DNA of 44,048 nucleotides from Pseudomonadota bacterium (GTDB lineage: Bacteria; Desulfobacterota; Desulfobulbia; Desulfobulbales; JAGXFP01). A model generated the notes under the pieces. That model was not told the origin of the DNA, searched no databases, and worked only from the letters and a program-made list of their open reading frames with translations. The position numbers and the translations under genes are program-made. The DNA lies in NCBI GenBank assembly GCA_018814305.1, contig JAHJAA010000031.1, positions 1 to 44,048 of the forward strand, in the 5' to 3' direction. Within the stretch, counting starts at the first letter, position 1. Every line of letters begins with the position of its first letter. Shown here in pieces: positions 677-41,029 of the stretch.

Positions 677-2899
677 ATGAATCGAACGAAATTATTCATC
701 GTATTCGTCCTGGGCTTCCTTGCTTTGATTGTTGCTGGTTGTGGTGGCGGCGGTAGTAGCACAGCGACTTCCAATACAACCTCAACAACCACACATAGTA
801 CTACAACCACTTCTAATGCAAATACTACGAGCCAAGCTGCAGAGCTCGTTACTATCCAGGAAGAATTAGCAGCGAACGGGGCCAAATGGATCGCGGGCGA
901 TAATCCTATATTTTCTCTGCCGGAAGAAGAAAAAGCAAAACTGGCCGGAACATTTAAGATTGATAGTGTAACAACCCAAACAACCAGCCGAACCTCTCGT
1001 GCGATAACTACTGCAATCCCCTCTTCCTTTGATTGGCGATCCACGGCAACTGGTAATTTTGTTACCGAGGTTAAATATCAAGATCATTGTGGGTCGTGCT
1101 GGGCGTTTGCTGCAACCGCAGCACTTGAATCCAGCGTATTGATAAATAATCCAGGTCAATTCGGCCCTGATTTTGATCTTTCAGAACAGATGATGTTGTC
1201 ATGTAGTGATGGTGATTGTGGCGGCGGTTCCCTGGCAATGGCAGCTGATTATTTATACACCACCGGTATATCATACGAGACATGTTATAATTACATTGCT
1301 GCTAATGGAAGTTGTAACAATAAGTGTCCCGATTGGGAAAGTAACGTGTTCCATATTGATGGCTGGAGATTTATTTCACGTGATTCCCTGAAAGAATATC
1401 TATTTCAGTATGGGCCGGTTGTCGCCTCCATAGATATTTATAGTGATTTTTATGCGTATATGTCCGGTATTTATGCCCCGGTGTCTTCGGCTGTGCAATA
1501 TGATAAATGCCATGCCGTCTTAGTTGTCGGGTACGACGATGCAGCGCAATGTCTTATAATAAAAAACAGCTGGGGAAATGATTGGGGTGAAGGTGGCTAT
1601 TTCAGGCTGTCATATGATGCGTTTGATATAATTAATGCACTTGTAGTCTTCCAGTCCCAGGGTGAAATTTCTGAGCCGACAACGATTGTCTTGACATCCC
1701 CCAATGTGTCCCAATCTTTTAACTCAGAATCGCGAACTTACTTAACCTGGAGTACTACCGGTGCATTTTTATCTGATAGAGTTGTTATTTCCATGAAACG
1801 TGGGTCGGTTGCGGCAGATGTCACGGTACCTGATAATGTCAATTGGTATCGATTTACTGAGCACGGCGCATCAACCTCTAATGATGGTCATGAGATTGTT
1901 ACCATACCTCCCGGCCTGACCGAAGCAAATGATTGGCGTTTTTATGTCAGGATTGAGGCTGCCGATGTATGGGATGCTTCCGATGCATCGTTCACGTATG
2001 TGGATGGAACAAACGATCCGGATCGGGATAAAGACGGTGATGGATACTCGGAAAACGCCGGCGACTGTGATGATACCAATGCGAATATCAACCCCGGCAC
2101 CACCTGGTTTCAGGATGTTGACGGCGATGGCTATACGAACGGCACCATGACAGGTTTCCAGTGTGCGCGCCCCGCTGGTTATTATTATCTTGACGAGCTG
2201 GCTTCTCCCGTAGTGGATTGCAACGACGCCGACGCCACCATTCATCCCGGTGCGACTGACGTGGCCAATGACGGCATTGATCAGGATTGTGTCGGTGGGG
2301 ATGCGGTCTCTTCAACTCCCGGTACCGTTACTTCGGCCGGACAGGTCTGGATGGATCGAAATCTGGGTGCCTCCCAAGTTGCTACCAGCTTTGATGATGC
2401 TGAAGCTTATGGTGATCTGTATCAGTGGGGGCGTGGAACAGATGGTCATGAAAAACGTGACAGTCCTACCACTTCCACTCTCAGTACGTCTGATACTCCT
2501 GGGCATGGCAATTTTATAACAGGATACAGCTACCCGCATGATTGGCGGTCCCCAAATAATGATACTCTCTGGCAGGGAGTTTCAGGGATCAACAATCCTT
2601 GTCCGGCTGGATTCCGTTTGCCGACGGTGACGGAATGGGAGGTCGAGGTGGCTTCGTGGTCCTGGGATAATCGAAGGGGGGCCTTTGCTTCTCCCTTAAA
2701 GCTTGTGTCGGGCCCGAGTCGCAACTCATTCGGCCAAACTTACTACGCCCCAGATCCCGAGGGCAACTACTGGAGCAGCTCGGCCACTGCTAGTAACACC
2801 GGCTATTACGCTCGTTGCCTCGCCTTCTACACCCGCAGTGTGCGATTGATGAGCAGCGAGCGTGCTAGTGGCAAGAGTGTCCGTTGTATCCAGGATTGA
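677..2899 (+). CDS. Secreted lipoprotein: papain-like (C1A) cysteine peptidase + MopE-like putative metal-binding repeats + C-terminal FISUMP (Fibrobacter succinogenes major paralogous) domain
   Basis: AGAGGA RBS precedes the ATG. Signal peptide with lipobox (LALIVAG|C) is followed by a low-complexity T/S-rich linker. The complete C1 catalytic triad is present: Q-x4-CGSCWAF (Cys), HAVLVVGYD (His), NSWGNDWGEGGYF (Asn-Ser-Trp). Two D-x-D-G-D-G-Y ... C-(D/N)-D-x-(N/D)-A-x-I-(N/H)-P-G repeats resemble the MopE-type 'putative metal-binding motif'. The C-terminal ~190 aa carry GQVWMDRNL..GDLYQWGRG..CPAGFRLPT..EW, typical of TIGR02145-like FISUMP domains. Confidence 0.85.
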   Translation: MNRTKLFIVFVLGFLALIVAGCGGGGSSTATSNTTSTTTHSTTTTSNANTTSQAAELVTIQEELAANGAKWIAGDNPIFSLPEEEKAKLAGTFKIDSVTTQTTSRTSRAITTAIPSSFDWRSTATGNFVTEVKYQDHCGSCWAFAATAALESSVLINNPGQFGPDFDLSEQMMLSCSDGDCGGGSLAMAADYLYTTGISYETCYNYIAANGSCNNKCPDWESNVFHIDGWRFISRDSLKEYLFQYGPVVASIDIYSDFYAYMSGIYAPVSSAVQYDKCHAVLVVGYDDAAQCLIIKNSWGNDWGEGGYFRLSYDAFDIINALVVFQSQGEISEPTTIVLTSPNVSQSFNSESRTYLTWSTTGAFLSDRVVISMKRGSVAADVTVPDNVNWYRFTEHGASTSNDGHEIVTIPPGLTEANDWRFYVRIEAADVWDASDASFTYVDGTNDPDRDKDGDGYSENAGDCDDTNANINPGTTWFQDVDGDGYTNGTMTGFQCARPAGYYYLDELASPVVDCNDADATIHPGATDVANDGIDQDCVGGDAVSSTPGTVTSAGQVWMDRNLGASQVATSFDDAEAYGDLYQWGRGTDGHEKRDSPTTSTLSTSDTPGHGNFITGYSYPHDWRSPNNDTLWQGVSGINNPCPAGFRLPTVTEWEVEVASWSWDNRRGAFASPLKLVSGPSRNSFGQTYYAPDPEGNYWSSSATASNTGYYARCLAFYTRSVRLMSSERASGKSVRCIQD

Positions 2900-3414
2900 T
2901 TGTGACCAGAAGAAATTCTTAGTCAAAACGTCAGTATTGACATGAGAATTTCGTGCTGTACTCAAGATGGTGGAAAGCCCGTTATGATTATTTTGAGCAG
3001 GTAAAAATTTGTTTTTACACCAGGGGAATTGACCAGACAGACTGAGAAACCTCAGTAAACAGCGAGATTACCGATTATTGAGAGAAAAAAAATTAGGTGG
3101 GAGTGGCAACTTGTTGCCCAATGCTGAAAACAACCAGAAAACTTCGACAAAATGACAAACTCTATTTTCAATTATGCACTAAACTGATGTATGGATTGTC
3201 TCACTAAAAACTTGTCTGGTTGGTATTGATACGGAATAAATCGAGTAAGTATTTTCCAAAAGTGGGTATAGTGTAAAAAATATTAATTTGAGTTTCATTA
3301 ATAATATTTGTTGGTACCTTTGTTGGTACTTTATTTTTATCACCAACAATAAGCACATACATTCATGGAGATGATCGAGCTATTTGATTGACATCAGCCC
3401 ATTAAAAAAGACAA

Positions 3415-3458
3415 CCCCGCATGGAAACCGCTTCCGGCTTCCATACGGGTTTTTTTTT
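3415..3458. terminator. Bidirectional rho-independent terminator hairpin (A-run / 11-bp stem / T9)
   Basis: The stem cccgcatggaa...ttccatacggg has one mismatch and is flanked 5' by aaaaaa and 3' by ttttttttt. It lies in an AT-rich 850-bp gene-free junction. Confidence 0.6.
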
Positions 3459-3756
3459 GCTCCCAGCGATAGCTAGCTACCGCAGCTGACGGAAAAGACG
3501 AAGCCATAGTTCCAATCCGTTGATGAGGCAATGGGCGCCACCGTCAACAGTAATTCAGGAAAAGCCCTAAACCACCTCAATCCTATTATCCGCCTTCTCC
3601 GGCCCGACAAGACTTTATTGCATTATTCCCTAGCACAGACTAAAAACCAAAATATATCGTTAGGTTGTTATTCAATATTGTTTGGAAATATCTTGACTAA
3701 TCACCTGGGAAAGACGTCACAGGTATTCACATAATTAATTAGCTTGGAGATAGGCT

Positions 3757-4668
3757 ATGGCCGTTCCCGATTTCCAATCCTTCTTCCTGCCGCTCTTGAA
3801 ACTAAGCGCAGACGGGGAAACCCACAGCTTAAAAGATTCGTATACCGCTATGGCAGAAGTTTTCAAGCTGAGTGATGACGACCTGGCAGAGATGTTGCCC
3901 AGCGGCAAGCAAACCACTTTTAAAAATCGGGTAGCCTGGGCCAATGTCTATCTGGCCAAGGCCCTTCTTCTGGAGCGACCCAAGCGGGGATTCTTTCGGA
4001 TTACGGAACGGGGCAAAGAGTTATTGCGGGCAAACCCAACAACTCTCAGGGTTAAGCAGTTAAAGGAGTACTCTGAGTTTGTCGACTTTCACACCACGGG
4101 CAATAAACAAGATAAAGTTATAGATACCTCCAGCGATGATGAACGGACCTCGACCCCGGAAGAAGTTTTCGAAAGCGCCTACCAGGAACTTCGCAACAGT
4201 CTGGCCAGTGAACTTCACGCCCACATCTTAAGTAACACCCCGGAGTTCTTTGAGCACTTGGTGGTTAAGCTCTTGGTCGAAATGGGTTACGGTGGTTCGA
4301 TCAAGGATGCCGGTCGGGCCATGGGCCGAAGTGGGGACGAAGGCATTGACGGTATCATTAAGGAAGACAAGTTGGGCCTCGATGTCATTTATATCCAAGC
4401 CAAAAGGTGGCAGGGATCGGTAGGTCGGCCTGAGGTTCAGAAATTTGTCGGCGCTCTCCACGGTCAGCGGGCTAAGAAAGGCGTATTCATTACCACAGGA
4501 AATTTTACCAGGGATGCAGAACATTATGTCTCGACCATTGATCCCAAGGTGGTATTGATCGATGGCAGCAGGTTGGTGGAATTGATGATCGACTATAATC
4601 TGGGGGTTTCCATTGCGGATACCTACGAGATCAAAAAAATCGATTCTGACTTTTTTATAGAGGAATAG
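3757..4668 (+). CDS. mrr: Mrr-family type IV (modification-dependent) restriction endonuclease
   Basis: The N-terminal ~90 aa form a winged-helix Mrr_N-like domain. The C-terminal Mrr_cat PD-(D/E)xK-like core reads GDEGIDGIIKEDKLGLDVIYIQAKRW. GGAGA RBS. Its stop is 5 nt before the mod start. Confidence 0.85.
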   Translation: MAVPDFQSFFLPLLKLSADGETHSLKDSYTAMAEVFKLSDDDLAEMLPSGKQTTFKNRVAWANVYLAKALLLERPKRGFFRITERGKELLRANPTTLRVKQLKEYSEFVDFHTTGNKQDKVIDTSSDDERTSTPEEVFESAYQELRNSLASELHAHILSNTPEFFEHLVVKLLVEMGYGGSIKDAGRAMGRSGDEGIDGIIKEDKLGLDVIYIQAKRWQGSVGRPEVQKFVGALHGQRAKKGVFITTGNFTRDAEHYVSTIDPKVVLIDGSRLVELMIDYNLGVSIADTYEIKKIDSDFFIEE

Positions 4669-4672
4669 CGGG

Positions 4673-6256
4673 ATGCCGGAGTTGATTTGGAAAGGTAAGG
4701 AGCAGGTTGTCAACCATCATCTGGAGGTGCCGGTGAAAACTCTGGATCGGCAATATACCTTTAATGGTGCAGGTGAGGCCGAGAGTGACAACAAGATCAT
4801 TCATGGCGATAACCTGGAGGCTCTCAAGGCCTTATTACCCCAGTATGAGGGGCGGGTGAACTGCATCTATATCGATCCACCTTACAACACCGGGAATGAG
4901 TCTTGGGTCTATAACGACAATGTCAAGGACCCGCGAATTGTCAAATGGCTGGGGGAGGTAGTAGGCAAGGAGGGTGAAGATCTCTGCCGCCACGACAAGT
5001 GGCTTTGTATGATGTATCCGCGCCTTCAATTACTTAAACGACTGTTGGCGGATGATGGTACTATCTGGATCTCCATTGATGACAATGAAGTTGCCAACCT
5101 GCGGCTCGTAATGGATGAGATTTTCGGGCAACGTAATTTCATTGCCAACGTCATTTGGCAGAAAGTTTTTTCCCCAAAGAACACAGCCAAACATTTCTCG
5201 GAAGACCATGATTTCATCATGATTTACGCACGGAATGCCGAGACATGGCGACCTAATCCAATGCCGCGCACCACCTCACAGGATGGAGCATATAAGAACC
5301 CCGACAACGACCCAAGAGGGCCTTGGACTTCTGGAGATCTTTCTGCGCGCAATTTTTATGGCGAGGGTACATATTCCATAACCTGTCCCTCCGGTCGAAT
5401 AATTGAAAATCCTCCTTCTGGACGCTATTGGGCGATTTCTAAACAAAAGTTTGAGGAACTTGACCGTAACAATCGAATATGGTGGGGGAAAAATAGAGGA
5501 AATATGCCCCGCCTAAAAAGATTTCTTACAGATGTCAAGCAAGGCGTGGTGCCTCAAACCCTCTGGTCATATAAAGATGCGGGCCATACCCAAGATGCCA
5601 AAAAAGAACTCCTAGCAGTTCTTGATTTTGAAACATCGGCTGACGTCTTTGTATCCCCTAAACCGACGAAGCTTATCGATCGCATTCTCCATATTGCTAC
5701 CGACAAAAATTCTCTCATCCTCGATTCTTTTGCCGGTTCCGGCACCACAGCCCAGGCCGTACTGAACCTCAACAAAAAAGATAATGGTAATCGTAAATTC
5801 ATCCTCATCGAGATGATGGACTATGCTGAGACCATAACGGCTGAGCGGATCAAAAGAGTTATTAAAGGTTACGGCGAAGATACAAAGGAGGTTGTGGCCA
5901 CGGGTGGTGATTTCACCTATTTCACCCTTGGCGAACGGGTATTTAATGAGGACGGCAATCTTAATGAGGCCATCGGCCCAACCAAGATTCGTGAATATGT
6001 GGCCTGGTCTGAGAAACTACCAGAGGCCCAAAACGACAATAATCCTTATTGGCTGGGTGAGAAAGACCGGACCGGTTATTACTTTTATTACGAGTCGGAC
6101 ACAGTCACAGTCCTTAACCTGGACTTCCTGGCCACCCTCAGCCACCAAACCGAGGCCTATCTGGTCTATGCCGACACCTGTCTGCTGGATGCGGAGTTTA
6201 TGCATCGCAAGCATATCCGCTTTAAAAAAATCCCTCGGGATATCTCCCGTTTCTAG
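4673..6256 (+). CDS. mod: Type III restriction-modification system methyltransferase (Mod), N6-adenine
   Basis: Motif IV DPPYNTG and motif I FAGSGTTAQAV are present. The mod-then-res gene order is typical of Type III systems, and res starts 10 nt after the mod stop. Confidence 0.9.
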   Translation: MPELIWKGKEQVVNHHLEVPVKTLDRQYTFNGAGEAESDNKIIHGDNLEALKALLPQYEGRVNCIYIDPPYNTGNESWVYNDNVKDPRIVKWLGEVVGKEGEDLCRHDKWLCMMYPRLQLLKRLLADDGTIWISIDDNEVANLRLVMDEIFGQRNFIANVIWQKVFSPKNTAKHFSEDHDFIMIYARNAETWRPNPMPRTTSQDGAYKNPDNDPRGPWTSGDLSARNFYGEGTYSITCPSGRIIENPPSGRYWAISKQKFEELDRNNRIWWGKNRGNMPRLKRFLTDVKQGVVPQTLWSYKDAGHTQDAKKELLAVLDFETSADVFVSPKPTKLIDRILHIATDKNSLILDSFAGSGTTAQAVLNLNKKDNGNRKFILIEMMDYAETITAERIKRVIKGYGEDTKEVVATGGDFTYFTLGERVFNEDGNLNEAIGPTKIREYVAWSEKLPEAQNDNNPYWLGEKDRTGYYFYYESDTVTVLNLDFLATLSHQTEAYLVYADTCLLDAEFMHRKHIRFKKIPRDISRF

Positions 6257-6265
6257 GAGTCTTTA

Positions 6266-8902
6266 ATGGAACTTCTGCCCTATCAACAACAGGTACTGAA
6301 CGATCTGGCCGATTTTTTGAGCTATGTGGAACGACGGGGTAACCTGAAGGAGGCCTTTGCCGATTACTGGCTTGATCGTGGGCTTGCCCGGCCTGAGCCT
6401 TATCGAGACATCATCCCCCAGGTGCCTCATATCTGTATCAAGGTCCCCACCGGCGGTGGAAAAACCTTTATCGCCGCCAATGCCATGAAGACCATCTTCG
6501 ATGCCTTGACCATCTACATGCGGGATGAGCCGCAGACCGTGGTCTGGTTGGTCCCATCCAACGCCATCCTTGATCAGACAATAAAATGCCTTGGCAACCC
6601 GCAACACCCATATCGCCGCAAGGTTGACACCCTGTTTAACGGCCGGGTGGCAGTTTACAGCAAGGAAGATCTCTTGCAGGGGGCCGGGTTTAATGCCACC
6701 TCCGTGCGTGAGCAATTGAACATCCTGGTCTTGAGCTATGCGTCATTCCGGACCAGCAATAAAGAGGGGCGCAAAGCCTTTCAGGAAAATTCCAACCTGA
6801 ATACCTTTGTCCATCAGATGAAGAGTGGCGACGTGTTGTCTGATACCGATGAGTCGGCGCTGGTTAATGTGATTCGCAGCATGAACCCGGTCTGTATCGT
6901 AGATGAGAGCCATAACACCGGTTCCACCTTGAGCAAGGAGATGCTCGTAAACTTTAATCCCAGTTTCATTCTGGATCTGACCGCCACTCCGAGGGAACAG
7001 AGCAATATTATCAGCTATGTGGATGCGGCCCAACTTAAAACCTATAACATGGTGAAGCTGCCGGTCATCGTCTATAACCACCATTCCAGCAAAGAGGTAA
7101 TCAGTAACGCCATCCAACTTCGCAATAATCTGGAAATCCAGGCGGTGGCTGAGCAGGAGGGGGGCGGCGACTATATCCGACCCATTGTTTTGTTCCAGGC
7201 AGAATCCAATACCGGCCAGGAAGACAAGACGACCTTTGAGGAGATCAAAAAGCGGCTGGTCAAGCTGGGTATTGCCGAGGAAGAAATTGCCATCAAAACA
7301 GCGAACATCAATGAATTGAAAAATGAGGATCTGCTTTCGGCCGGTTGTCCTATTCGTTACATCATTACCATTAACGCCCTGAAAGAGGGTTGGGACTGCC
7401 CCTTCGCCTATATCCTGGCCACCATCGCCAATCGCCAATCCCAGGTAGATGTTGAGCAGATCGTCGGTAGGGTCCTCCGCCAGCCATACGCCCGGCGGCA
7501 GCACAATAATTTGTTAAATAACTCATACGTTTTGGCCTCATCTGCTAATTTTATCACCACGCTGGACAAGATTGTCGCCGGCCTGAATCAGGCTGGATTC
7601 AGTAAGAAAGATATGCGAGCCAAGGATCTGGCGGAACTTGCCGGGCCGAACCCTGATCCTAAACTTGAGCAAAAACAGGCGGGCCTGTTTGATACACCTC
7701 CTGTTGGAGAGCGGGCAGCGATTGACGAAGTGACGGCGACCAACAGTAATTTGGTTGAATGGCCTGAAAGTTTGCCTGATCTCTCTGTTCGCAGCGGGGG
7801 AAATATTCCGGATGTCTTGCAGGACATAATCGAGCAGGCAGAAAAAGAAACCAGGGAATATGAAGAGCAGGTAAGCCGCCGCAGTTTTGAGAATATTTCC
7901 GAAGAGGTGCGGGATAAAATGAATGATTTCGGTATGGTAGCGCATTCGGCCGAACAGGCCAAGAAACTCAGTTTGCCGCAGTTTTTTATGAAGATCCCCA
8001 ATATGAGCCTTTTTGGTGAAGATACCTTCTTTTTCAACAAGGAGGAGTTATTGAAGGATTTCCGCTTGAGTCAGGCGGACAGCAGCATGGATTTTAGTGT
8101 GATGGAGGATGAGGCTTACCGGGTCGATTTAGAAGAAGTCGGGGAGCATGACTATAAACCCAGATTTTGGAAGTTGCAGCACTCCACCAGGGAACGATTA
8201 ATGGAGTATCTCGTTGCCCTACCCCCTGAGTCCCAGAAAAAGGCGGTGGCGACAAGGCTCTGCGATCTGGTTGGCAATATGTACCCTATCGTCGACCAGG
8301 AGGTAAAGAAATACGTCCAGCGCATTCTTGACGATATGAATGTTGAACAGATCAATGATTGTTTGGAGCGAGAATTCAGCTATCGGAACAAAATAAAGGC
8401 CAAGATTAAAGAACTGGCGACAGATCACGCTGAGACCGTGTTCTATCAGTGGCTGGCCGCAGATAAAATAATGACCCAGGAATCTTTTAAATTACCTGAG
8501 TCAATCCACCCGGTGGAAACGGCCCCGGCGATACCAGCCAGCCTTTATGCCTCTGAGGGGAAGGTGAACTCCTGGGAGGCCAAGGTTATCAATGAAATTG
8601 CCAATCTCGACAATATTGCTTTTTGGCACCGCATTGAAGAGCGCAAAGGATTTTGCATTAACGGCTTTATCAATCACTACCCGGACTTTCTGGTGCAGAC
8701 GAAGAACGGCAAGACTTTGCTTGTCGAGACCAAGGGTGATGATCGGGATAATTCCGATTCGGTCCGCAAGCTGAAACTCGGTGAGGCTTGGGCCAATAAG
8801 GCTGGAAATGATTTTCGTTATTTTATGGTGTTCGACACGAATGCCATTGCCGGGGCCTATAATCTTGATGACTTTTTAAAAGTTGTCGGTGGTCTGGGGT
8901 AA
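6266..8902 (+). CDS. res: Type III restriction enzyme Res subunit (SF2 helicase + C-terminal PD-ExK nuclease)
   Basis: Walker A KVPTGGGKTFIAANA and a DEAH-like IVDESHN motif are present. The C-terminal nuclease motif is PDFLV...LLVETKGDD. AGGAG RBS. Confidence 0.9.
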   Translation: MELLPYQQQVLNDLADFLSYVERRGNLKEAFADYWLDRGLARPEPYRDIIPQVPHICIKVPTGGGKTFIAANAMKTIFDALTIYMRDEPQTVVWLVPSNAILDQTIKCLGNPQHPYRRKVDTLFNGRVAVYSKEDLLQGAGFNATSVREQLNILVLSYASFRTSNKEGRKAFQENSNLNTFVHQMKSGDVLSDTDESALVNVIRSMNPVCIVDESHNTGSTLSKEMLVNFNPSFILDLTATPREQSNIISYVDAAQLKTYNMVKLPVIVYNHHSSKEVISNAIQLRNNLEIQAVAEQEGGGDYIRPIVLFQAESNTGQEDKTTFEEIKKRLVKLGIAEEEIAIKTANINELKNEDLLSAGCPIRYIITINALKEGWDCPFAYILATIANRQSQVDVEQIVGRVLRQPYARRQHNNLLNNSYVLASSANFITTLDKIVAGLNQAGFSKKDMRAKDLAELAGPNPDPKLEQKQAGLFDTPPVGERAAIDEVTATNSNLVEWPESLPDLSVRSGGNIPDVLQDIIEQAEKETREYEEQVSRRSFENISEEVRDKMNDFGMVAHSAEQAKKLSLPQFFMKIPNMSLFGEDTFFFNKEELLKDFRLSQADSSMDFSVMEDEAYRVDLEEVGEHDYKPRFWKLQHSTRERLMEYLVALPPESQKKAVATRLCDLVGNMYPIVDQEVKKYVQRILDDMNVEQINDCLEREFSYRNKIKAKIKELATDHAETVFYQWLAADKIMTQESFKLPESIHPVETAPAIPASLYASEGKVNSWEAKVINEIANLDNIAFWHRIEERKGFCINGFINHYPDFLVQTKNGKTLLVETKGDDRDNSDSVRKLKLGEAWANKAGNDFRYFMVFDTNAIAGAYNLDDFLKVVGGLG

Positions 8903-36205: not shown

Positions 36206-36676
36206 GTGAATAATAACGATGTGTTACGTGGAATCCGCTTCACCTTCAACTTGAGTGATTCAAAAATGATTTCAATATTTAGCCAGGCTGATCACCAGGT
36301 GACGCGCGCGGAGATATGTGATTGGTTAAAAAAAGAGGATGATCCTGCCTTTCAGAAATGTAGTGACCCTCTCCTGGCGATTTTCCTGAACGGTCTGATT
36401 ATCGAGAAACGAGGGAAAAAAGAAGGGCCGCAACCCGAACCAGAGCAAAAATTAACGAACAATATGGTTTTCCTGAAATTAAAAATTGCCCTAAACCTGA
36501 AAGCCGAAGACGTCTTGGAGCTTATGGAGATGGCTGGTTTTCCCATGAGTAAACACGAACTAAGTGCGTTTTCACGTAAGCCAGGCAACAAACACTATCG
36601 TGAATGTAAAGATCAGATCTTACGTTATTTTCTTAAAGGGATGCAACGTAAGTATCGCCCTGATCCCAAAGGATAA
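36206..36676 (+). CDS. DUF1456 (YehS-like) family protein
   Basis: The protein has two ~70-aa repeats, each opening with NNDVLRGIRFTFNLSD / NNMVFLKLKIALNLKAEDVLELME. It also carries the family-typical W-L-K-K-E-D-D and FLNGLIIEKRGKKEG segments. Confidence 0.55.
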   Translation: MNNNDVLRGIRFTFNLSDSKMISIFSQADHQVTRAEICDWLKKEDDPAFQKCSDPLLAIFLNGLIIEKRGKKEGPQPEPEQKLTNNMVFLKLKIALNLKAEDVLELMEMAGFPMSKHELSAFSRKPGNKHYRECKDQILRYFLKGMQRKYRPDPKG

Positions 36677-36861: not shown

Positions 36862-36890
36862 TTGACTTACGATGGATACCCCTATACAAT
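36862..36890 (+). promoter_or_regulatory. σ70-like promoter TTGACT-N17-TACAAT heading a ~315-nt leader of the nucleotidyltransferase operon
   Basis: ttgact lies at 36862-36867, a 17-nt spacer follows, and tacaat lies at 36885-36890. Confidence 0.4.
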
Positions 36891-36984
36891 TAGTTTTCCC
36901 TGATCTAAAAGTGGCTTTCCGATTCTTCTCGTAATTGAATCATCTTTTCACCACTTTCTTCTTACGTTTGTCCCACCACCAGTC

Positions 36985-37134
36985 TTTATGCCCTTCAGCT
37001 AGATTCCTTTGTCAATCGGCAGAAAATAATAGCTAAATCATAAAACTGCACCACGTTGTTATCATATTGCTCTAGGTCGTCTAGCACATTCTCTATGCCC
37101 TTCCTTTGGATTCTTTGCTCCAATCGGCAGAACG
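36985..37134 (+). repeat. Two ~42-nt imperfect direct repeats in the operon leader (ct-t-tatgcccttc...gattc-tttg-caatcggcagaa)
   Basis: Copy 1 is ctttatgcccttcagctagattcctttgtcaatcggcagaa (36985-37025). Copy 2 is ctctatgcccttcctttggattctttgctccaatcggcagaa (37091-37132). The segment is non-coding in all frames. Confidence 0.45.
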
Positions 37135-37205
37135 CCCTAACACCTAAGCTGTGCCGTGTTGTTTCCTTTTCATGGTCTGGTTTTTTTAATTCGGAGGAAC
37201 AATAC

Positions 37206-38111
37206 ATGAGGTACAGGACCCTTCGTCCTAGTCTTAATAATGATGAACGGGTAAGCACAGCCCTGCTGTTGGCTGCCGGCACTGGTAGCCGCCTTGCCCC
37301 GTTGACCGATGAAGTGCCAAAGTGTCTGGTGCCGGTCAATGAAATTACGATTCTCAAGCGACTGGTCGATTCCCTTCAGGAACACAATTTCAAGCGGCTG
37401 ATTATCGTTGTCGGCCATCAGGCGGACTGTATACGCAAGTTCCTTGGCCCTTTCGCCGGCGGGATGGAAATTGTTTATGTCACTAGCCCCTTATACAAAA
37501 CCACCAACAATATCTATTCTTTATGGCTGACTAGAAAATTAATCAATGAGCCGTTTCTGTTGATCGAGAGTGATCTCGTTTTCGACTCGGAAATGCTGAA
37601 AGATATGCTCACTCCCGACCGAATTGCCATCGCTGAATTGAGCCCCTGGATGGATGGAACCACGGTGACCATTAATAGACACCAGAAGATCGGGGCATTT
37701 TATGGCGGCGACCATCAACGAGATGATAAACATTTTAAGACGGTCAATATCTACAGCCTTTCCCGCAAAACCTGGCATTTGGTTCGGGAAAGATTGGAGC
37801 GCCAGATTTCCGCTAATATGATGAATGGTTATTACGAGACTGTTTTCGCGGATATGGCCAACGAGGGCTGTCTGTCTTTTTCGCCGGTTTTCTTTGATCC
37901 CAAACGTTGGTATGAGATTGACAATCATGCCGATTTACGGGCAGCTGAAAAGATGTGCGCTCGCCATTACCAGCCCCAGGTCATTGCGGCAGAACAAATG
38001 GTTAGCAGGCAAAAAAGCAAAGGTTCCCTTGTCTATAAGTGCTTGAAAGGTCTTGATCCATTCAGCAAGGTGGCGGCTCCAGCAATGGCTGCTTCGCCCT
38101 TATCAAGCTAA
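37206..38111 (+). CDS. Sugar-phosphate / phospho-alcohol nucleotidyltransferase (NTP_transferase family; LicC/IPCT-like cytidylyltransferase candidate)
   Basis: The N-terminal G-x-G-x-R motif is LLLAAGTGSRLAPLT. There is a GGAGG RBS 8 nt upstream of the ATG at 37206. The ORF-track start at 37056 adds an RBS-less, low-complexity extension and is rejected. Confidence 0.8.
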   Translation: MRYRTLRPSLNNDERVSTALLLAAGTGSRLAPLTDEVPKCLVPVNEITILKRLVDSLQEHNFKRLIIVVGHQADCIRKFLGPFAGGMEIVYVTSPLYKTTNNIYSLWLTRKLINEPFLLIESDLVFDSEMLKDMLTPDRIAIAELSPWMDGTTVTINRHQKIGAFYGGDHQRDDKHFKTVNIYSLSRKTWHLVRERLERQISANMMNGYYETVFADMANEGCLSFSPVFFDPKRWYEIDNHADLRAAEKMCARHYQPQVIAAEQMVSRQKSKGSLVYKCLKGLDPFSKVAAPAMAASPLSS

Positions 38112-38132
38112 TCTTTTTAAAGATACCGAGAG

Positions 38133-39239
38133 ATGACCAAAAAAGACCTCACAGCTCAAGAGAGCTACGAATATGTTTCCGGACAACATGGCGGCTATTG
38201 GCGCCATGATTTTATCGATCACAACTATCTCTACAACCTCTATTTTCCCCCGGAAGATTTCTTCCATCATCTTACCAGCCATATCCATCAACTGGTTTTA
38301 AGCTATCCCGTAGGTCAGCAGGAGCTGGCCTCCCTGGTTGGCGAGTTGATCGACCAGCCACCGGAGCGGATTGTGGTCGGCAATGGCGCCGCTGAACTGA
38401 TCAAAATTATCGCCGGCCTGGGCCGGAAATTGATTGTGCCGGTGCCGTCCTTTAATGAATATGCCAATGTGATGCCAGCCGGGCAGGTGGTTGAGTTTGC
38501 CCTTAAAGCACCATCTTTTGAGCTGGATGTGGATAAATTCGCCGCCGAGGCCATCCGCACAGAGGCCCGTCTGGCCGTGATAGTCAGCCCGAACAATCCT
38601 ACCTCCCTGCTGGTTCCGAAGGCGCAACTTATCCGTTTAGCCGATACATTGGCCAACCACGACTGTCTGCTCATCGTTGATGAATCTTTTATTGATTTTG
38701 CCGCCAATCGGGACCAGGAAACGCTGGAACCAGAGATCGATCAACACCCGAACCTGGCAATTTTCAAAAGCATGAGCAAGGCCTATAGTATCTGCGGGAT
38801 CCGAATCGGCTATATGCTCACCGCCAACACCGACTTTGCGGCCCGGATCCGCCAGGGGCTGCATATCTGGAACCTTAATGGTTTCGCGGAGGAATTTCTG
38901 CGACTTGCCCCCCGGTACCGGCAGGCGTTTACCGCCAGCTGCAATAGGGTCAAGGCGGACCGCGATCATTTTTATGAACAACTGCAAACGATCCCGGACC
39001 TGATCGTTTATAAGCCTGAGGCCAATTATATATTCTGTCGGCTGCCCGATCATGGTGCCTCCGGTCCAGAGATAACCGAACAACTCTTTGTGAAGCACAA
39101 CATCTATATTAAACATTGCCAGGGTAAGACCATGCCGGAATCTGACCGTTATCTCCGGATCGCCAGTCGCACCCAGCCCGAAAATATGAGCCTGGTTGGT
39201 GCCTTAACCGACCTTGTCGCTCAGGAGAGAATATCATGA
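38133..39239 (+). CDS. Class-II PLP-dependent aminotransferase-fold enzyme of the HisC / CobD (threonine-phosphate decarboxylase) family
   Basis: The PLP-lysine region is FKSMSKAYSICGIRIGYML, and the length and DES-containing segment (IVDESFIDF) are typical of the family. Its stop overlaps the next gene's start (ATGA). Confidence 0.85.
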   Translation: MTKKDLTAQESYEYVSGQHGGYWRHDFIDHNYLYNLYFPPEDFFHHLTSHIHQLVLSYPVGQQELASLVGELIDQPPERIVVGNGAAELIKIIAGLGRKLIVPVPSFNEYANVMPAGQVVEFALKAPSFELDVDKFAAEAIRTEARLAVIVSPNNPTSLLVPKAQLIRLADTLANHDCLLIVDESFIDFAANRDQETLEPEIDQHPNLAIFKSMSKAYSICGIRIGYMLTANTDFAARIRQGLHIWNLNGFAEEFLRLAPRYRQAFTASCNRVKADRDHFYEQLQTIPDLIVYKPEANYIFCRLPDHGASGPEITEQLFVKHNIYIKHCQGKTMPESDRYLRIASRTQPENMSLVGALTDLVAQERIS

Positions 39240-39892
39240 CCGCCAACCAGACAACAGAGTCCCCTTCAATCCTCTCTTTTGCCAAAGACCTGCCGAACAT
39301 CTGTTCTCTGGCCGGACTGCTCTGCGCGGTCCTCGCTATTTATTTTGCGCTCCTTGGCAACTTCCCCGCCACAATGATCAGCCTGATCTGGGCATTATTC
39401 TTTGACTGGAGTGATGGCATCATCGCCCGGAGCATCAAAGGACGGAGCGAAAAACAACGGGCCTTCGGGGGCCAGCTTGATTCCCTGATCGATATTATCA
39501 GTTACGGCATTTGTCCGGCCCTGGTCCTGTTAAGCTGGGGAAATTTCAGCCCCTGGTTCCTGCCCGGCGCTTTTCTGATCCTGGCGGCCGGAGTCTTCCG
39601 ACTCAGTTATTATAATGTCTTCGGACTGGTTGGCGGGTCGACCTACCGGGGCTTGGCGCTCGACAACAATTGCATCATTCTGACCTTTGTCTTCCTCTTT
39701 AGCGCCTTGATCGACAAAACTGTTTTCACTTCCTTGCTCTACATCCTGCTTATGATCCTGGCTGCCCTGAACGTGGCGCCAATCCATACTCCCAAATTGA
39801 CCGGGCGCTGGTATTACATCCTCATCGCCTATACGATCACTTTGTCTGTGATATATGGCTGGCAGTTATTGCATTTTTCGCACTCAACTTAA
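39236..39892 (+). CDS. Small CDP-alcohol phosphatidyltransferase-family integral membrane protein
   Basis: The D-x2-D-G-x2-A-R...G-x3-D-x3-D signature is DWSDGIIARS...GGQLDSLID. There are 5-6 TM helices and the protein is 218 aa, similar in size to archaeal DIPP synthase-type enzymes. Confidence 0.8.
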   Translation: MTANQTTESPSILSFAKDLPNICSLAGLLCAVLAIYFALLGNFPATMISLIWALFFDWSDGIIARSIKGRSEKQRAFGGQLDSLIDIISYGICPALVLLSWGNFSPWFLPGAFLILAAGVFRLSYYNVFGLVGGSTYRGLALDNNCIILTFVFLFSALIDKTVFTSLLYILLMILAALNVAPIHTPKLTGRWYYILIAYTITLSVIYGWQLLHFSHST

Positions 39893-39928
39893 TTTTCCAG
39901 AAACCCTCTCGTTCAAAAGGAATTAAGC

Positions 39929-40774
39929 ATGAATCTTTTACATATCTCCGATCTGCATTTCGGCCCTCGCCACTGGGAGGGAGACGACCAGGTTTTGCTG
40001 AATAAGCTCAATTCTTTTAATGCCGATATTGTGATCAACACCGGCGACAGTACCACCGATGGTCTGGAGGATGAGTATGTTGCCGCAGGGCTTTTCCTGG
40101 CGGGCCTCAAGTGCGACAATGTCATCTCCATCATTGGTAATCACGACAAAAGAAACATGCGCTCCCATGAACTGTTCCGCAAGTATATTTATGACACCCC
40201 GGTCATCACCATCCCCGAGACGGTGTTAACCAACAAGAAACACCTCTTTTTGAACCGGGAAATAACCAAGGTCCGTGAAAATTTCACCGATGTAAACTTT
40301 CTCAAGTCCCTTTCCATCGACGGGAAATCCATCCTGATTATCAACATCGATTCCAATGAACTATACAATGATGAGGGGTTTGTGGAAAAAGAGGTCCTCA
40401 AGGTGGCCTCAGAGAAAATCGAACAACTGGAATATGACCTGCCGCTGCTCCTTACCCATTATTCCGTTTTGGGCACCGACGAGTGTCCGCTGAAAAATTC
40501 ATCGATCCTGATTGATTTTGTCCAAAAGCATAAAATCGAATATGTCTTTTGCGGCCATACCCACGAACTGGAACTGATGCGCACAAACGATCTCTATCAC
40601 AACCACTCCTTCTTCCATTTTATGTGTGGCTCATTGTCCTCCTGCAACCATGCCAACGATGACAACATGTTTCTCTATTATGAGAATCTGGGCAGTGCTG
40701 ACCTGCGCCTCTATCTGGTGCGGATTTTCCTGGAAGGGAGTGATATGCGTTTTGCAGAGGAACGGGTCATTTAA
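39929..40774 (+). CDS. Calcineurin-like metallophosphoesterase
   Basis: The metallophosphoesterase motifs are D-x-H (ISDLHFG), GD (NTGDS), GNHD (IIGNHDKRN), and GH-x-H (CGHTHE). Confidence 0.8.
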   Translation: MNLLHISDLHFGPRHWEGDDQVLLNKLNSFNADIVINTGDSTTDGLEDEYVAAGLFLAGLKCDNVISIIGNHDKRNMRSHELFRKYIYDTPVITIPETVLTNKKHLFLNREITKVRENFTDVNFLKSLSIDGKSILIINIDSNELYNDEGFVEKEVLKVASEKIEQLEYDLPLLLTHYSVLGTDECPLKNSSILIDFVQKHKIEYVFCGHTHELELMRTNDLYHNHSFFHFMCGSLSSCNHANDDNMFLYYENLGSADLRLYLVRIFLEGSDMRFAEERVI

Positions 40775-40998
40775 GCCAAAGTAGAATTCAAAGAAGTCTA
40801 CGCTGGCTGGAAAAACAAATGAACCCTCGTGAAGCGGCCCACCGGGCGCTGACTCTGCTTGAAGATTCGGTTGAGGTCGGACTCATCATTTTGACCAAAA
40901 ACGAATTTACCGCCCAGGCCAAAAACAGCATAGCGTGGTCTCATCTTACCGAGACGTAACAACAAAGTCAGTCCGATATCACATTCTTTTCATACCTC

Positions 40999-41029
40999 TG
41001 AGCCTTTTGCAAAAGGCTCATCTTTCATT
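40999..41029 (+). terminator. Intrinsic terminator (perfect 10-bp stem tgagcctttt/aaaaggctca + T-rich tail) ending the four-gene operon
   Basis: The element reads tgagccttttGCaaaaggctca followed by tctttcatt. Confidence 0.5.

Follow-up and report, generated by a model that had tools for sequence, protein, structure and literature searches.

In textbook accounts, bacterial phospholipid synthesis goes via cytidine diphosphate (CDP)-diacylglycerol. CDP-alcohol (Kennedy) routes are seen as eukaryotic, with Treponema an oddity. The question raised here is whether a short run of bacterial genes could encode such a CDP-alcohol route, complete with its own source of the alcohol. The genes are at positions 37,206 to 40,774 of contig JAHJAA010000031.1 (assembly GCA_018814305.1, GTDB lineage Desulfobacterota, Desulfobulbia, Desulfobulbales). 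We refer to the whole stretch of DNA analysed, which is 44,048 nt long, as the window. An earlier reading of the letters of the window (the original prediction) had proposed that four genes here specify an uncharacterised, Kennedy-like pathway for a CDP-amino-alcohol, matching neither the cobamide nucleotide loop nor the IPCT/DIPPS system. That core idea held in the tests that we ran. On balance, the evidence tips slightly towards genes 1 to 3 being a de novo Kennedy-like head-group pathway, by which a CDP-amino-alcohol delivers what is probably a phosphoethanolamine head group to lipid, and towards the three genes being a cassette that is complete in itself and mobile by horizontal transfer.

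The conserved unit is a trio of genes

The four co-directional genes of the original prediction were confirmed, in strand, position, and family, by the list of open reading frames (ORFs) and by Pfam (Table 1). Coupling by ATGA overlaps, which had been proposed for the whole set, applies to genes 2 and 3 only (39236-39239). Genes 1 and 2 are separated by a gap of 21 nt, and genes 3 and 4 by a gap of 36 nt, so the three junctions measure +21, -4, and +36 nt. None of the four proteins reaches any NCBIfam equivalog cutoff.

It was also expected that all four genes would be conserved together. For genes 1, 2, and 3 this is strongly the case, and their order is conserved, as expected of an operon. 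Gene 4, on the other hand, has this neighbouring position in a minority of relatives only, and is present at 8 of 81 trio loci. Hence, the conserved unit is a trio, made up of the nucleotidyltransferase, the CobD-like pyridoxal 5'-phosphate (PLP) enzyme, and the CDP-alcohol transferase, rather than a set of four genes. Loci were counted as informative if 2.3 kb or more of DNA was available upstream, and two cases of overlap were corrected by hand. The trio order is co-directional in 55 of these 67 loci. The same order (nucleotidyltransferase, PLP enzyme, transferase) was kept in spot checks of Photobacterium, a gammaproteobacterial metagenome-assembled genome (MAG), and a Desulfobacterales MAG. 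The trio is in this order, too, in two complete genomes, those of Desulfocapsa sulfexigens and Desulfobacula toluolica. Furthermore, at two Thiotrichaceae-type MAG loci (L027:4133-5941 and L029:3674-5491), the nucleotidyltransferase and the CobD-like enzyme are a single fusion protein of 603 amino acids, encoded beside the transferase.

When one genome per species was scanned, close relatives of the transferase (60-80% identity) were found in at least 585 species genomes, from many phyla. Carriers include Desulfobulbales, Desulfobacterales, Desulfuromonadales, Thiotrichaceae, Moraxellaceae, Cellvibrionales, Methylococcales, the Solemya velum gill symbiont, and Photobacterium sagamiensis, together with MAGs of Opitutales, Planctomycetota, Chloroflexota, Actinomycetes, Chlorobiota, and Zixibacteria. 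Some carriers are both cultured and genome sequenced, namely Desulfocapsa sulfexigens DSM 10523, Desulfobacula toluolica Tol2, Desulfobacter curvatus DSM 3379, and Photobacterium sagamiensis. Most loci are from marine or sediment MAGs. At five gammaproteobacterial loci, the place of the CobD-like protein is taken by another class I/II PLP enzyme (PRK07324/GntC/VioD-like).

Two loci are on contigs assigned to archaea. At L075, on a contig binned as Methanosarcina, the whole trio occurs twice in tandem (1265-4003 and 4849-7587). This may be a real archaeal duplication, an assembly artefact, or a binning error. At L085 (GCA_013166765.1, 'Methanococcoides sp. SA1'), a four-gene cluster is accompanied by BatA/BatD, HisKA, and guanylate-cyclase genes. 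These are bacterial genes, and we rejected L085 as an archaeal trio, on the grounds of bacterial contamination in the archaeal assembly.

Table 1. Coordinates of the cluster, its flanking signals, and examples of accessory genes. Positions without a locus prefix are those of the window.
Feature	Position	Strand	Size	Remarks
Sigma-70-like promoter candidate	36862..36890	+		TTGACT-17-TACAAT; 10/12 matches; upstream of conserved leader
Conserved leader	36908..37205	+	~300 nt	Two tandem element copies, then conserved GGAGGA Shine-Dalgarno
Gene 1, nucleotidyltransferase	37206..38111	+	301 amino acids	Pfam NTP_transferase/NTP_transf_3, above gathering score
Gene 2, CobD-like fold-type-I PLP enzyme	38133..39239	+	368 amino acids	Pfam Aminotran_1_2, above gathering score
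Gene 3, small CDP-alcohol phosphotransferase	39236..39892	+	218 amino acids	CDP-OH_P_transf (PF01066), above gathering score
Gene 4, cytoplasmic metallophosphoesterase	39929..40774	+	281 amino acids	Metallophos (PF00149), above gathering score
Terminator-like hairpin	40999..41020	+		9 bp stem, GCAA loop, then T-rich tail TCTTTCATT
ATP-grasp ligase (examples)	L077:6650-7918, L083:5593-6960, L167:6074-7348			19 other loci
SAM methyltransferase (examples)	L012:6688-7551, L047:6614-7471, L050:5081-6001			6 other loci

Predicted functions of the conserved proteins

Gene 2 encodes a predicted O-phospho-L-serine/threonine decarboxylase. The original prediction had placed this protein in the HisC/CobD family, and named a search able to separate the two. 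The outcome is CobD-like. The CobD model (TIGR01140) ranked top with 177.8 bits, compared to 137.6 bits for HisC (TIGR01141), and both scores are below their cutoffs (290.55 and 276.55 bits, respectively). The best match in the PDB is 6oux, a 'threonine phosphate decarboxylase-like enzyme' (E 5.5e-36). The match to CobD itself (1lc5) has an E value of 1.5e-26, compared to between 1e-13 and 1e-18 for true HisC structures. Note that the name of 6oux corresponds to SMUL_1544 of Sulfurospirillum (annotation in PMC7755780). The Schiff-base lysine, K216, and residues N155, D183, and R224 are at least 95% conserved among 67 family members. In line with the molecule name in the PDB and with annotation, we take SMUL_1544/6oux to be an O-phosphoserine decarboxylase that produces ethanolamine phosphate. 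In the loci examined, genes neighbouring that for the PLP enzyme encode the nucleotidyltransferase and CDP-alcohol transferase; they are never his or cob genes. Similarly, no cob/cbi context was found in the flanks of the window or among the conserved neighbours of the 81 trio loci. With a score below the HisC cutoff, and no his genes nearby, gene 2 is not a bona fide HisC in a his operon, a case by which the original prediction was to be judged. Nor does the other such case, a lack of co-conservation, hold, since genes 1 to 3 are kept together.

Gene 1 encodes a predicted CTP:phospho-amino-alcohol cytidylyltransferase (CTP being cytidine triphosphate) of the LicC/PntC type. A comparison with LicC, IPCT, and PntC had also been proposed; LicC and PntC are closest, and IPCT is weaker. 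In a search of PDB sequences, the nearest solved relatives are LicC (1jyk, E 5.4e-12) and PntC (6pd1, E 3.4e-11). These activate phosphocholine and 2-aminoethylphosphonate, respectively, each with CTP. The match to IPCT is much weaker (E 2e-5), and the score with the IPCT/DIPPS model NF041135 is 56 bits, against a cutoff of 580. The nucleotide-binding signature LAAGTGSRLAPLT...PKCL, which has the form G-x-G-(T/S)-R...K, is invariant in the family. Residue E121, within an invariant ESDL motif, aligns with Glu104 of PntC. This PntC side chain hydrogen-bonds the primary amine of the substrate, while LicC has a shorter residue (Asp105) at the same position, which fits choline. For the second acidic residue of PntC (Glu196), we found no alignable counterpart; the C-terminal half of gene 1 matched only spurious designed Kelch repeats in the PDB.

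Gene 3 encodes a small CDP-alcohol phosphotransferase, with a PF01066 score of 47.3 bits against a 22-bit cutoff. Scores with the PssA and archaetidylserine synthase models (TIGR00473 and NF038087) are 61.2 vs 107 and 90.2 vs 240 bits, respectively, and so below cutoff. The protein has the motif D57x2D60G61x2A64R65-x12-G78x3D82x3D86, in which all eight signature residues are present and invariant. The spacer from A-R to G is 12 residues long, compared to 8 in the standard motif, and corresponds to a 4-residue insertion relative to Methanocaldococcus jannaschii PssA. Within the insertion, G69, R70, and Q74 are invariant across the family (window positions 39404-39493 encode residues 57-86). The 12-residue spacer is a signature of this subfamily. 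In total, 4532 homologues were detectable. The best 120 are 69-100% identical, and belong to Desulfobacterota, Gammaproteobacteria, and others; top matches from different phyla share 70-83% identity.

A predicted three-step pathway

How might the three proteins work together? Judging from the chemistry of each family, the CobD-like enzyme would first decarboxylate a phosphorylated hydroxy-amino acid. Phosphoserine would give phosphoethanolamine and phosphothreonine would give aminopropanol phosphate. The LicC/PntC-like nucleotidyltransferase would then use CTP to make the CDP-amino-alcohol. Finally, the membrane CDP-alcohol phosphotransferase would move the phospho-amino-alcohol to an alcohol acceptor, with release of cytidine monophosphate. 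Every substrate and product named here is thus predicted. The scheme is the only one that uses all three conserved enzymes. We favour phosphoserine as the starting point because the cassette has no kinase, and because phosphoserine is a universal intermediate of serine biosynthesis. Consistent with this, Pfam searches of the neighbouring genes found no kinase near the cassette in the window. The acceptor is most likely diacylglycerol, which would yield phosphatidylethanolamine or a close analogue. Since the trio alone is conserved, and diacylglycerol is ubiquitous, a glycerolipid is the most economical end point.

Several observations weigh against a phosphoethanolamine lipid as the product. 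The PLP enzyme scores below the CobD equivalog cutoff, and could function as a transaminase, like Cj1437 of Campylobacter jejuni. Since five loci have a different PLP subfamily, the amino alcohol need not be the same everywhere. The transferase has an unusual 12-residue spacer and is most like CDP-diacylglycerol-dependent serine synthases, not known choline or ethanolamine phosphotransferases. Lastly, carriers presumably already make phosphatidylethanolamine via Pss and Psd.

More speculatively, the trio could be a horizontally spread and self-sufficient amino-phospholipid route that bypasses CDP-diacylglycerol, Pss, and Psd. The backbones might be diacylglycerol, ether, or other neutral lipids. 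Lineage-specific tailoring, by ATP-grasp N-aminoacylation, N-methylation, and phosphodiesterase-based salvage, might then generate uncatalogued head groups in marine-sediment lipidomes. A kinase-free cassette that makes a CDP-amino-alcohol de novo, carried by at least 585 species, would be a new branch of lipid or solute metabolism in bacteria. The species include Desulfobacterota, many Gammaproteobacteria (one chemosynthetic symbiont among them), Opitutales, Planctomycetota, and Chloroflexota. Unassigned amino-phospholipids, in sediment lipidomes used as biomarkers, could be accounted for in this way. The trio would also offer a compact, three-gene tool for head-group engineering.

Gene 4 is one of three alternative accessory genes

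All ORFs were clustered across the 81 trio loci to survey accessory genes. Gene 4 is a lineage-restricted accessory gene, and one of three alternatives (Table 1). The most frequent, at 22 of the 81 loci, encodes an ATP-grasp ligase of 423-460 amino acids, weakly similar to LdmS/BesA, and lies directly 3' of the transferase gene. It is not found in the window. Its presence suggests N-acylation or aminoacylation of an amine head group. At nine loci, a gene for an S-adenosylmethionine (SAM) methyltransferase of ~285 amino acids, similar to Methyltransf_PK, NodS, and daptide methyltransferases, is beside that for the transferase (eight downstream and one, L050, upstream). At L050, from Methylococcales, the methyltransferase gene overlaps the start of the transferase gene, and no nucleotidyltransferase or PLP enzyme gene is nearby. 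The presence of amide ligases, and enzymes like N-methyltransferases, beside the trio fits a product with a free primary amine. This amine would be optionally tailored by whichever accessory enzyme a lineage has.

The third alternative is the metallophosphoesterase, at eight trio loci including the window. In seven of these, the gene is 3' of the transferase gene on the same strand, sometimes behind the ATP-grasp gene; at L083 it is upstream and on the opposite strand. A search for phosphoesterase orthologues gave 81 loci, 63-89% identical, of which 80 are from metagenomes and one is the contaminant contig L085. Where there was enough upstream DNA, 20 of 39 were linked to the trio. Ten of the 20 have the trio upstream on the same strand, often in the order nucleotidyltransferase, PLP enzyme, transferase, ATP-grasp ligase, phosphoesterase. 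For the other ten, the trio is elsewhere in the flank and mostly transcribed divergently. Of the complete genomes, that of Desulfocapsa sulfexigens DSM 10523 shows all five genes running in one direction, and that of Desulfobacula toluolica Tol2 the divergent form of trio and phosphoesterase. At L111 (4405-5946), and five similar metagenome loci, a gene for a PAS-domain sigma-54 enhancer-binding protein is located between the divergent trio and phosphoesterase.

The remaining orthologues adjoin genes for ATP-binding cassette (ABC) importers of the PotD-like, Dpp-like, or OpuA type. One example is L166 (Methanococcoides burtonii CP000300.1, 8001-8846), where a 72%-identical phosphoesterase is encoded adjacent to an OpuA-type betaine ABC transporter, with no trio nearby. 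An orthologue in genuine Methanococcoides genomes implies that the gene has been transferred between domains, and that its role can be independent of the trio. From these arrangements, the phosphoesterase is functionally linked to the trio in Desulfobacterota, although the trio does not require it and it is not confined to the trio. The original prediction had a phosphatase finishing the intermediates of the pathway. The enzyme, found at so few trio loci, is not an obligatory step. Its probable substrate is a phospho(di)ester of the same amino alcohol, which would be hydrolysed for turnover, for salvage into the pathway, or to take off a terminal phosphate. Such a role would also explain its alternative location beside importers.

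The gene 4 product scores 59.9 bits with PF00149, against a cutoff of 21.5. It has the motifs D-x-H, G-D, G-N-H-D, H, and G-H-x-H, and residues D8, H10, D40, N71, H72, H177, H210, and H212 are invariant among 24 homologues. Among PDB sequences, nothing matched better than E 0.1. An AlphaFold2 model, built with the 24 close homologues, is of low confidence (predicted local distance difference test score 58.5). The top Foldseek match of this low-confidence model is GpdQ (3d03, E 2.7e-8), with a template modelling (TM) score of 0.32, all matches being at or below 0.35. We regard the likeness to GpdQ glycerophosphodiesterase as a weak hint.

Alternative explanations

Could the product be soluble, rather than a lipid? 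If so, the CDP-amino-alcohol would react with a phosphorylated soluble alcohol (glycerol-3-phosphate, phosphoserine, or a sugar phosphate), and a phosphatase would remove the terminal phosphate. The resulting DIPP-like phosphodiester would be a compatible solute of marine-sediment bacteria. There is clear precedent for this in IPCT/DIPPS plus phosphatase, where the compound made by a membrane CDP-alcohol transferase is soluble, and such a solute would suit marine anaerobes. The habitat of most loci, the weak match between the nucleotidyltransferase and the IPCT/DIPPS model, and the linkage of phosphoesterase to trio in two different arrangements are consistent with such a solute. So are the glycine-betaine-type ABC transporter genes near the M. 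burtonii phosphoesterase, and a related ABC ATPase near the cluster in four loci. Even so, we consider a soluble product unlikely. Roughly 90% of trio loci are without the phosphoesterase, which puts a dedicated finishing phosphatase outside the conserved unit, and the IPCT/DIPPS equivalog score is far under its cutoff. We know of no amino-alcohol phosphodiester solute of this kind in these taxa. A different proposal keeps the CDP logic and changes the PLP step. Transamination, of dihydroxyacetone phosphate to serinol phosphate for example, would result in a head group such as phosphoserinol. The HisC/CobD clade does hold both decarboxylases and transaminases of phosphorylated substrates, including C. 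jejuni Cj1436 and Cj1437. Scores under both the CobD and HisC cutoffs, and substitution by an aminotransferase-like PLP enzyme in five loci, also allow for this. Yet the CobD model is 40 bits above HisC, and the top solved relatives are 6oux, 3ftb, and 1lc5. Two of these, 6oux and 1lc5, are decarboxylase entries, while 3ftb was deposited as a histidinol-phosphate aminotransferase. Transamination thus also strikes us as improbable.

Less probable still is surface decoration, in which the phospho-amino-alcohol would pass, as in Lic and Pnt systems, to a lipid-linked glycan, polyprenol, or other envelope acceptor instead of diacylglycerol. The proteins nearest to that of gene 1, LicC and PntC, do take part in the tailoring of glycans and lipids, and a MurJ-like flippase gene adjoins the trio in one locus. 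Against this, clustering of neighbouring ORFs at the 81 loci turned up neither glycosyltransferase nor polysaccharide genes as conserved neighbours of the trio. Furthermore, the transferases of known Lic and Pnt systems are of the LicD type, and are not CDP-alcohol phosphotransferases. Finally, the genes might be housekeeping genes adjacent by chance: a genuine HisC or CobD, an ordinary PssA, and a sugar-nucleotide enzyme. Some source annotations do label the transferase 'phosphatidylserine synthase'. However, all three proteins are under every equivalog cutoff, their order and adjacency are conserved across phyla, and the fusion exists. In the window, neither the 20 kb upstream of the cluster nor its flanking genes include a his or cob gene. 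On the basis of cutoffs, gene context, and fusion, we rejected this explanation, which has hardly any probability left. An amino-alcohol head group, made by decarboxylation and delivered to lipid, is still the preferred reading.

Relationship to known systems

In full-text searches of the literature, we found no paper that describes these genes together. The enzyme families are all known, as is the logic of CDP-alcohols. The novelty lies in the predicted de novo entry, with a CobD-like enzyme and no kinase, in a transferase subfamily of its own, in tailoring that is modular, and in how widely the genes are distributed.

Among characterised systems, the nearest is LicCA-CPT of Treponema denticola, a CDP-choline pathway and bacterial Kennedy-type route of a kind uncommon in bacteria (PMC8590670). 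In T. denticola, a LicC-family cytidylyltransferase makes a CDP-amino-alcohol, and a membrane enzyme of the CDP-alcohol family uses diacylglycerol (PMC8590670); for the trio, the same is predicted. The two differ at the point of entry. T. denticola imports choline and phosphorylates it with the kinase LicA, whereas the trio has no kinase, and the CobD-like enzyme is the predicted de novo source. The trio transferase also differs from the T. denticola CPT; it is small and Pss-like, with the x12 motif spacer. In the CDP-ethanolamine pathway of eukaryotes (PCYT2 with EPT1/CEPT1), phosphoethanolamine is converted to CDP-ethanolamine, as predicted here, and the transferases are of the same superfamily. 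Eukaryotes phosphorylate free ethanolamine and use a cytidylyltransferase of another fold, and their transferases are about twice as long.

In the IPCT/DIPPS system of hyperthermophiles, too, a nucleotidyltransferase and a membrane CDP-alcohol transferase act together, and a phosphatase comes after them; IPCT and DIPPS can also be fused. It differs in making di-myo-inositol phosphate, a soluble solute, from inositol-1-phosphate. No inositol-phosphate synthase gene was found near the cluster or among conserved neighbours at the 81 loci. The closest proposed system, itself unconfirmed, is a putative inositol-lipid cluster of Bacteroides vulgatus and Prevotella, for which a Kennedy-like route was suggested (PMC9246714). 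This encodes an NTP transferase, a CDP-alcohol phosphatidyltransferase, and a HAD hydrolase. While that cluster, in other taxa, is linked to inositol-phosphate synthase and has a HAD hydrolase, the cluster described here has a PLP enzyme and a metallophosphoesterase.

The remaining parallels concern the PLP enzyme. CobD and SMUL_1544 (6oux) are the closest relatives of gene 2, and CobD-type chemistry produces aminopropanol phosphate. Their genes are among cbi/cob genes (PMC7755780), while gene 2 is partnered by genes for a cytidylyltransferase and a CDP-alcohol transferase, and scores under the CobD cutoff. For capsule synthesis, C. jejuni has the phosphoserine decarboxylase Cj1436, the ATP-dependent amidoligase Cj1438C, and the phosphatase Cj1435, while Cj1437 converts dihydroxyacetone phosphate to serinol phosphate (PMC12409886). 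A PLP enzyme producing ethanolamine phosphate, an ATP-dependent ligase acting on the amine, and a phosphatase together resemble the five-gene form of the cassette. Unlike the cassette, the C. jejuni set has no CDP activation or CDP-alcohol transferase, and the acceptor is a glucuronate carboxylate in the capsule. In PntC-AEPT (6pd1), as in the 603-residue fusion, a LicC-family cytidylyltransferase is joined to a PLP enzyme, and the ESDL motif, with its amine-binding glutamate, is shared. The PLP domain of PntC-AEPT is, by contrast, a class-V transaminase acting on phosphonoacetaldehyde, and is linked to phosphoenolpyruvate (PEP) mutase. No PEP mutase turned up among conserved neighbours of the trio, although no search was aimed at this enzyme.

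Flanking genes, leader, and terminator-like hairpin

Upstream of the cluster, the DUF1456 gene noted in the original prediction is indeed present (36206-36676, by Pfam). As a conserved neighbour of the cassette, it was found at none of 84 loci. Similarly, an upstream DUF6172 gene is real, according to Pfam, and is not conserved alongside the cluster. The 20 kb upstream in the window encode Clp, PanE, MetK, AhcY, chemotaxis, and two-component proteins. The only PADLOC match, a weak one, was to part of the phosphoesterase near its N-terminus, and none was to the trio; on this basis, we dropped the idea of a defence system.

The intergenic region before gene 1 is 529 nt long and holds a conserved leader. 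The repeats that the original prediction saw in it are borne out by a direct repeat of ~45 nt (36980-37024 and 37087-37132). The leader element is TGCCCTTCAGCT-N12-13-CCAATCGGCAGAA. The window, L006, and L021 each have two copies of it at a spacing of 108 nt, and eight other Desulfobulbales-type loci have one. Across 11 related Desulfobulbales-type loci, the element is always 83-125 nt before the start codon of the first gene. The leader also has a nearly invariant CCAATCGGCAG(A/T)A block, with TGCCCTTCAGCT in front of it, and is 74% identical to that of L006 over 305 nt. Besides the window, loci with the leader are L006, L007, L011, L013, L014, L018, L021, L063, L064, L074, and L081. A further conserved upstream block, TGGyCwTyCGATTCTCT...TAATTGAA, bears a loose likeness to a sigma-54 -24/-12 promoter, without GC at -12.

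The leader could, in principle, be a structured RNA. Rfam, at gathering thresholds, gave no match in the window. For 15 aligned leader units, RNAalifold returned 3 pairs at -3 kcal/mol, with no covariation and no conserved structure. Given these two results, we rejected a riboswitch or other structured RNA. The element is more likely to be protein binding or promoter proximal. Promoter hexamers similar to those in Table 1 are found at the same place in relatives. Promoter-like sites occur across the region at the frequency expected by chance, hence we treat the site as a candidate only.

Downstream, the original prediction gave the four genes a shared terminator at 40999-41029. A hairpin with a T-rich tail is present (Table 1), but 225 nt beyond the stop codon of gene 4, with the remnant of another gene between. 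Ten terminator-like sites were found in the region, compared to 6.8 +/- 2.4 expected from shuffled sequences, so such sites are not enriched. The hairpin is 40 nt from the 3' end of a convergent aldo/keto reductase gene, and its tail on the opposite strand is not T-rich. The remnant, between gene 4 and the hairpin (~40790-40959), is the 3' part, ~55 codons, of an isoaspartyl-peptidase/asparaginase-like gene. At L018 (5752-6558), this gene is intact, encoding 268 amino acids, and lies behind the orthologous phosphoesterase gene. Its 5' part was evidently removed, in the window, by deletion.

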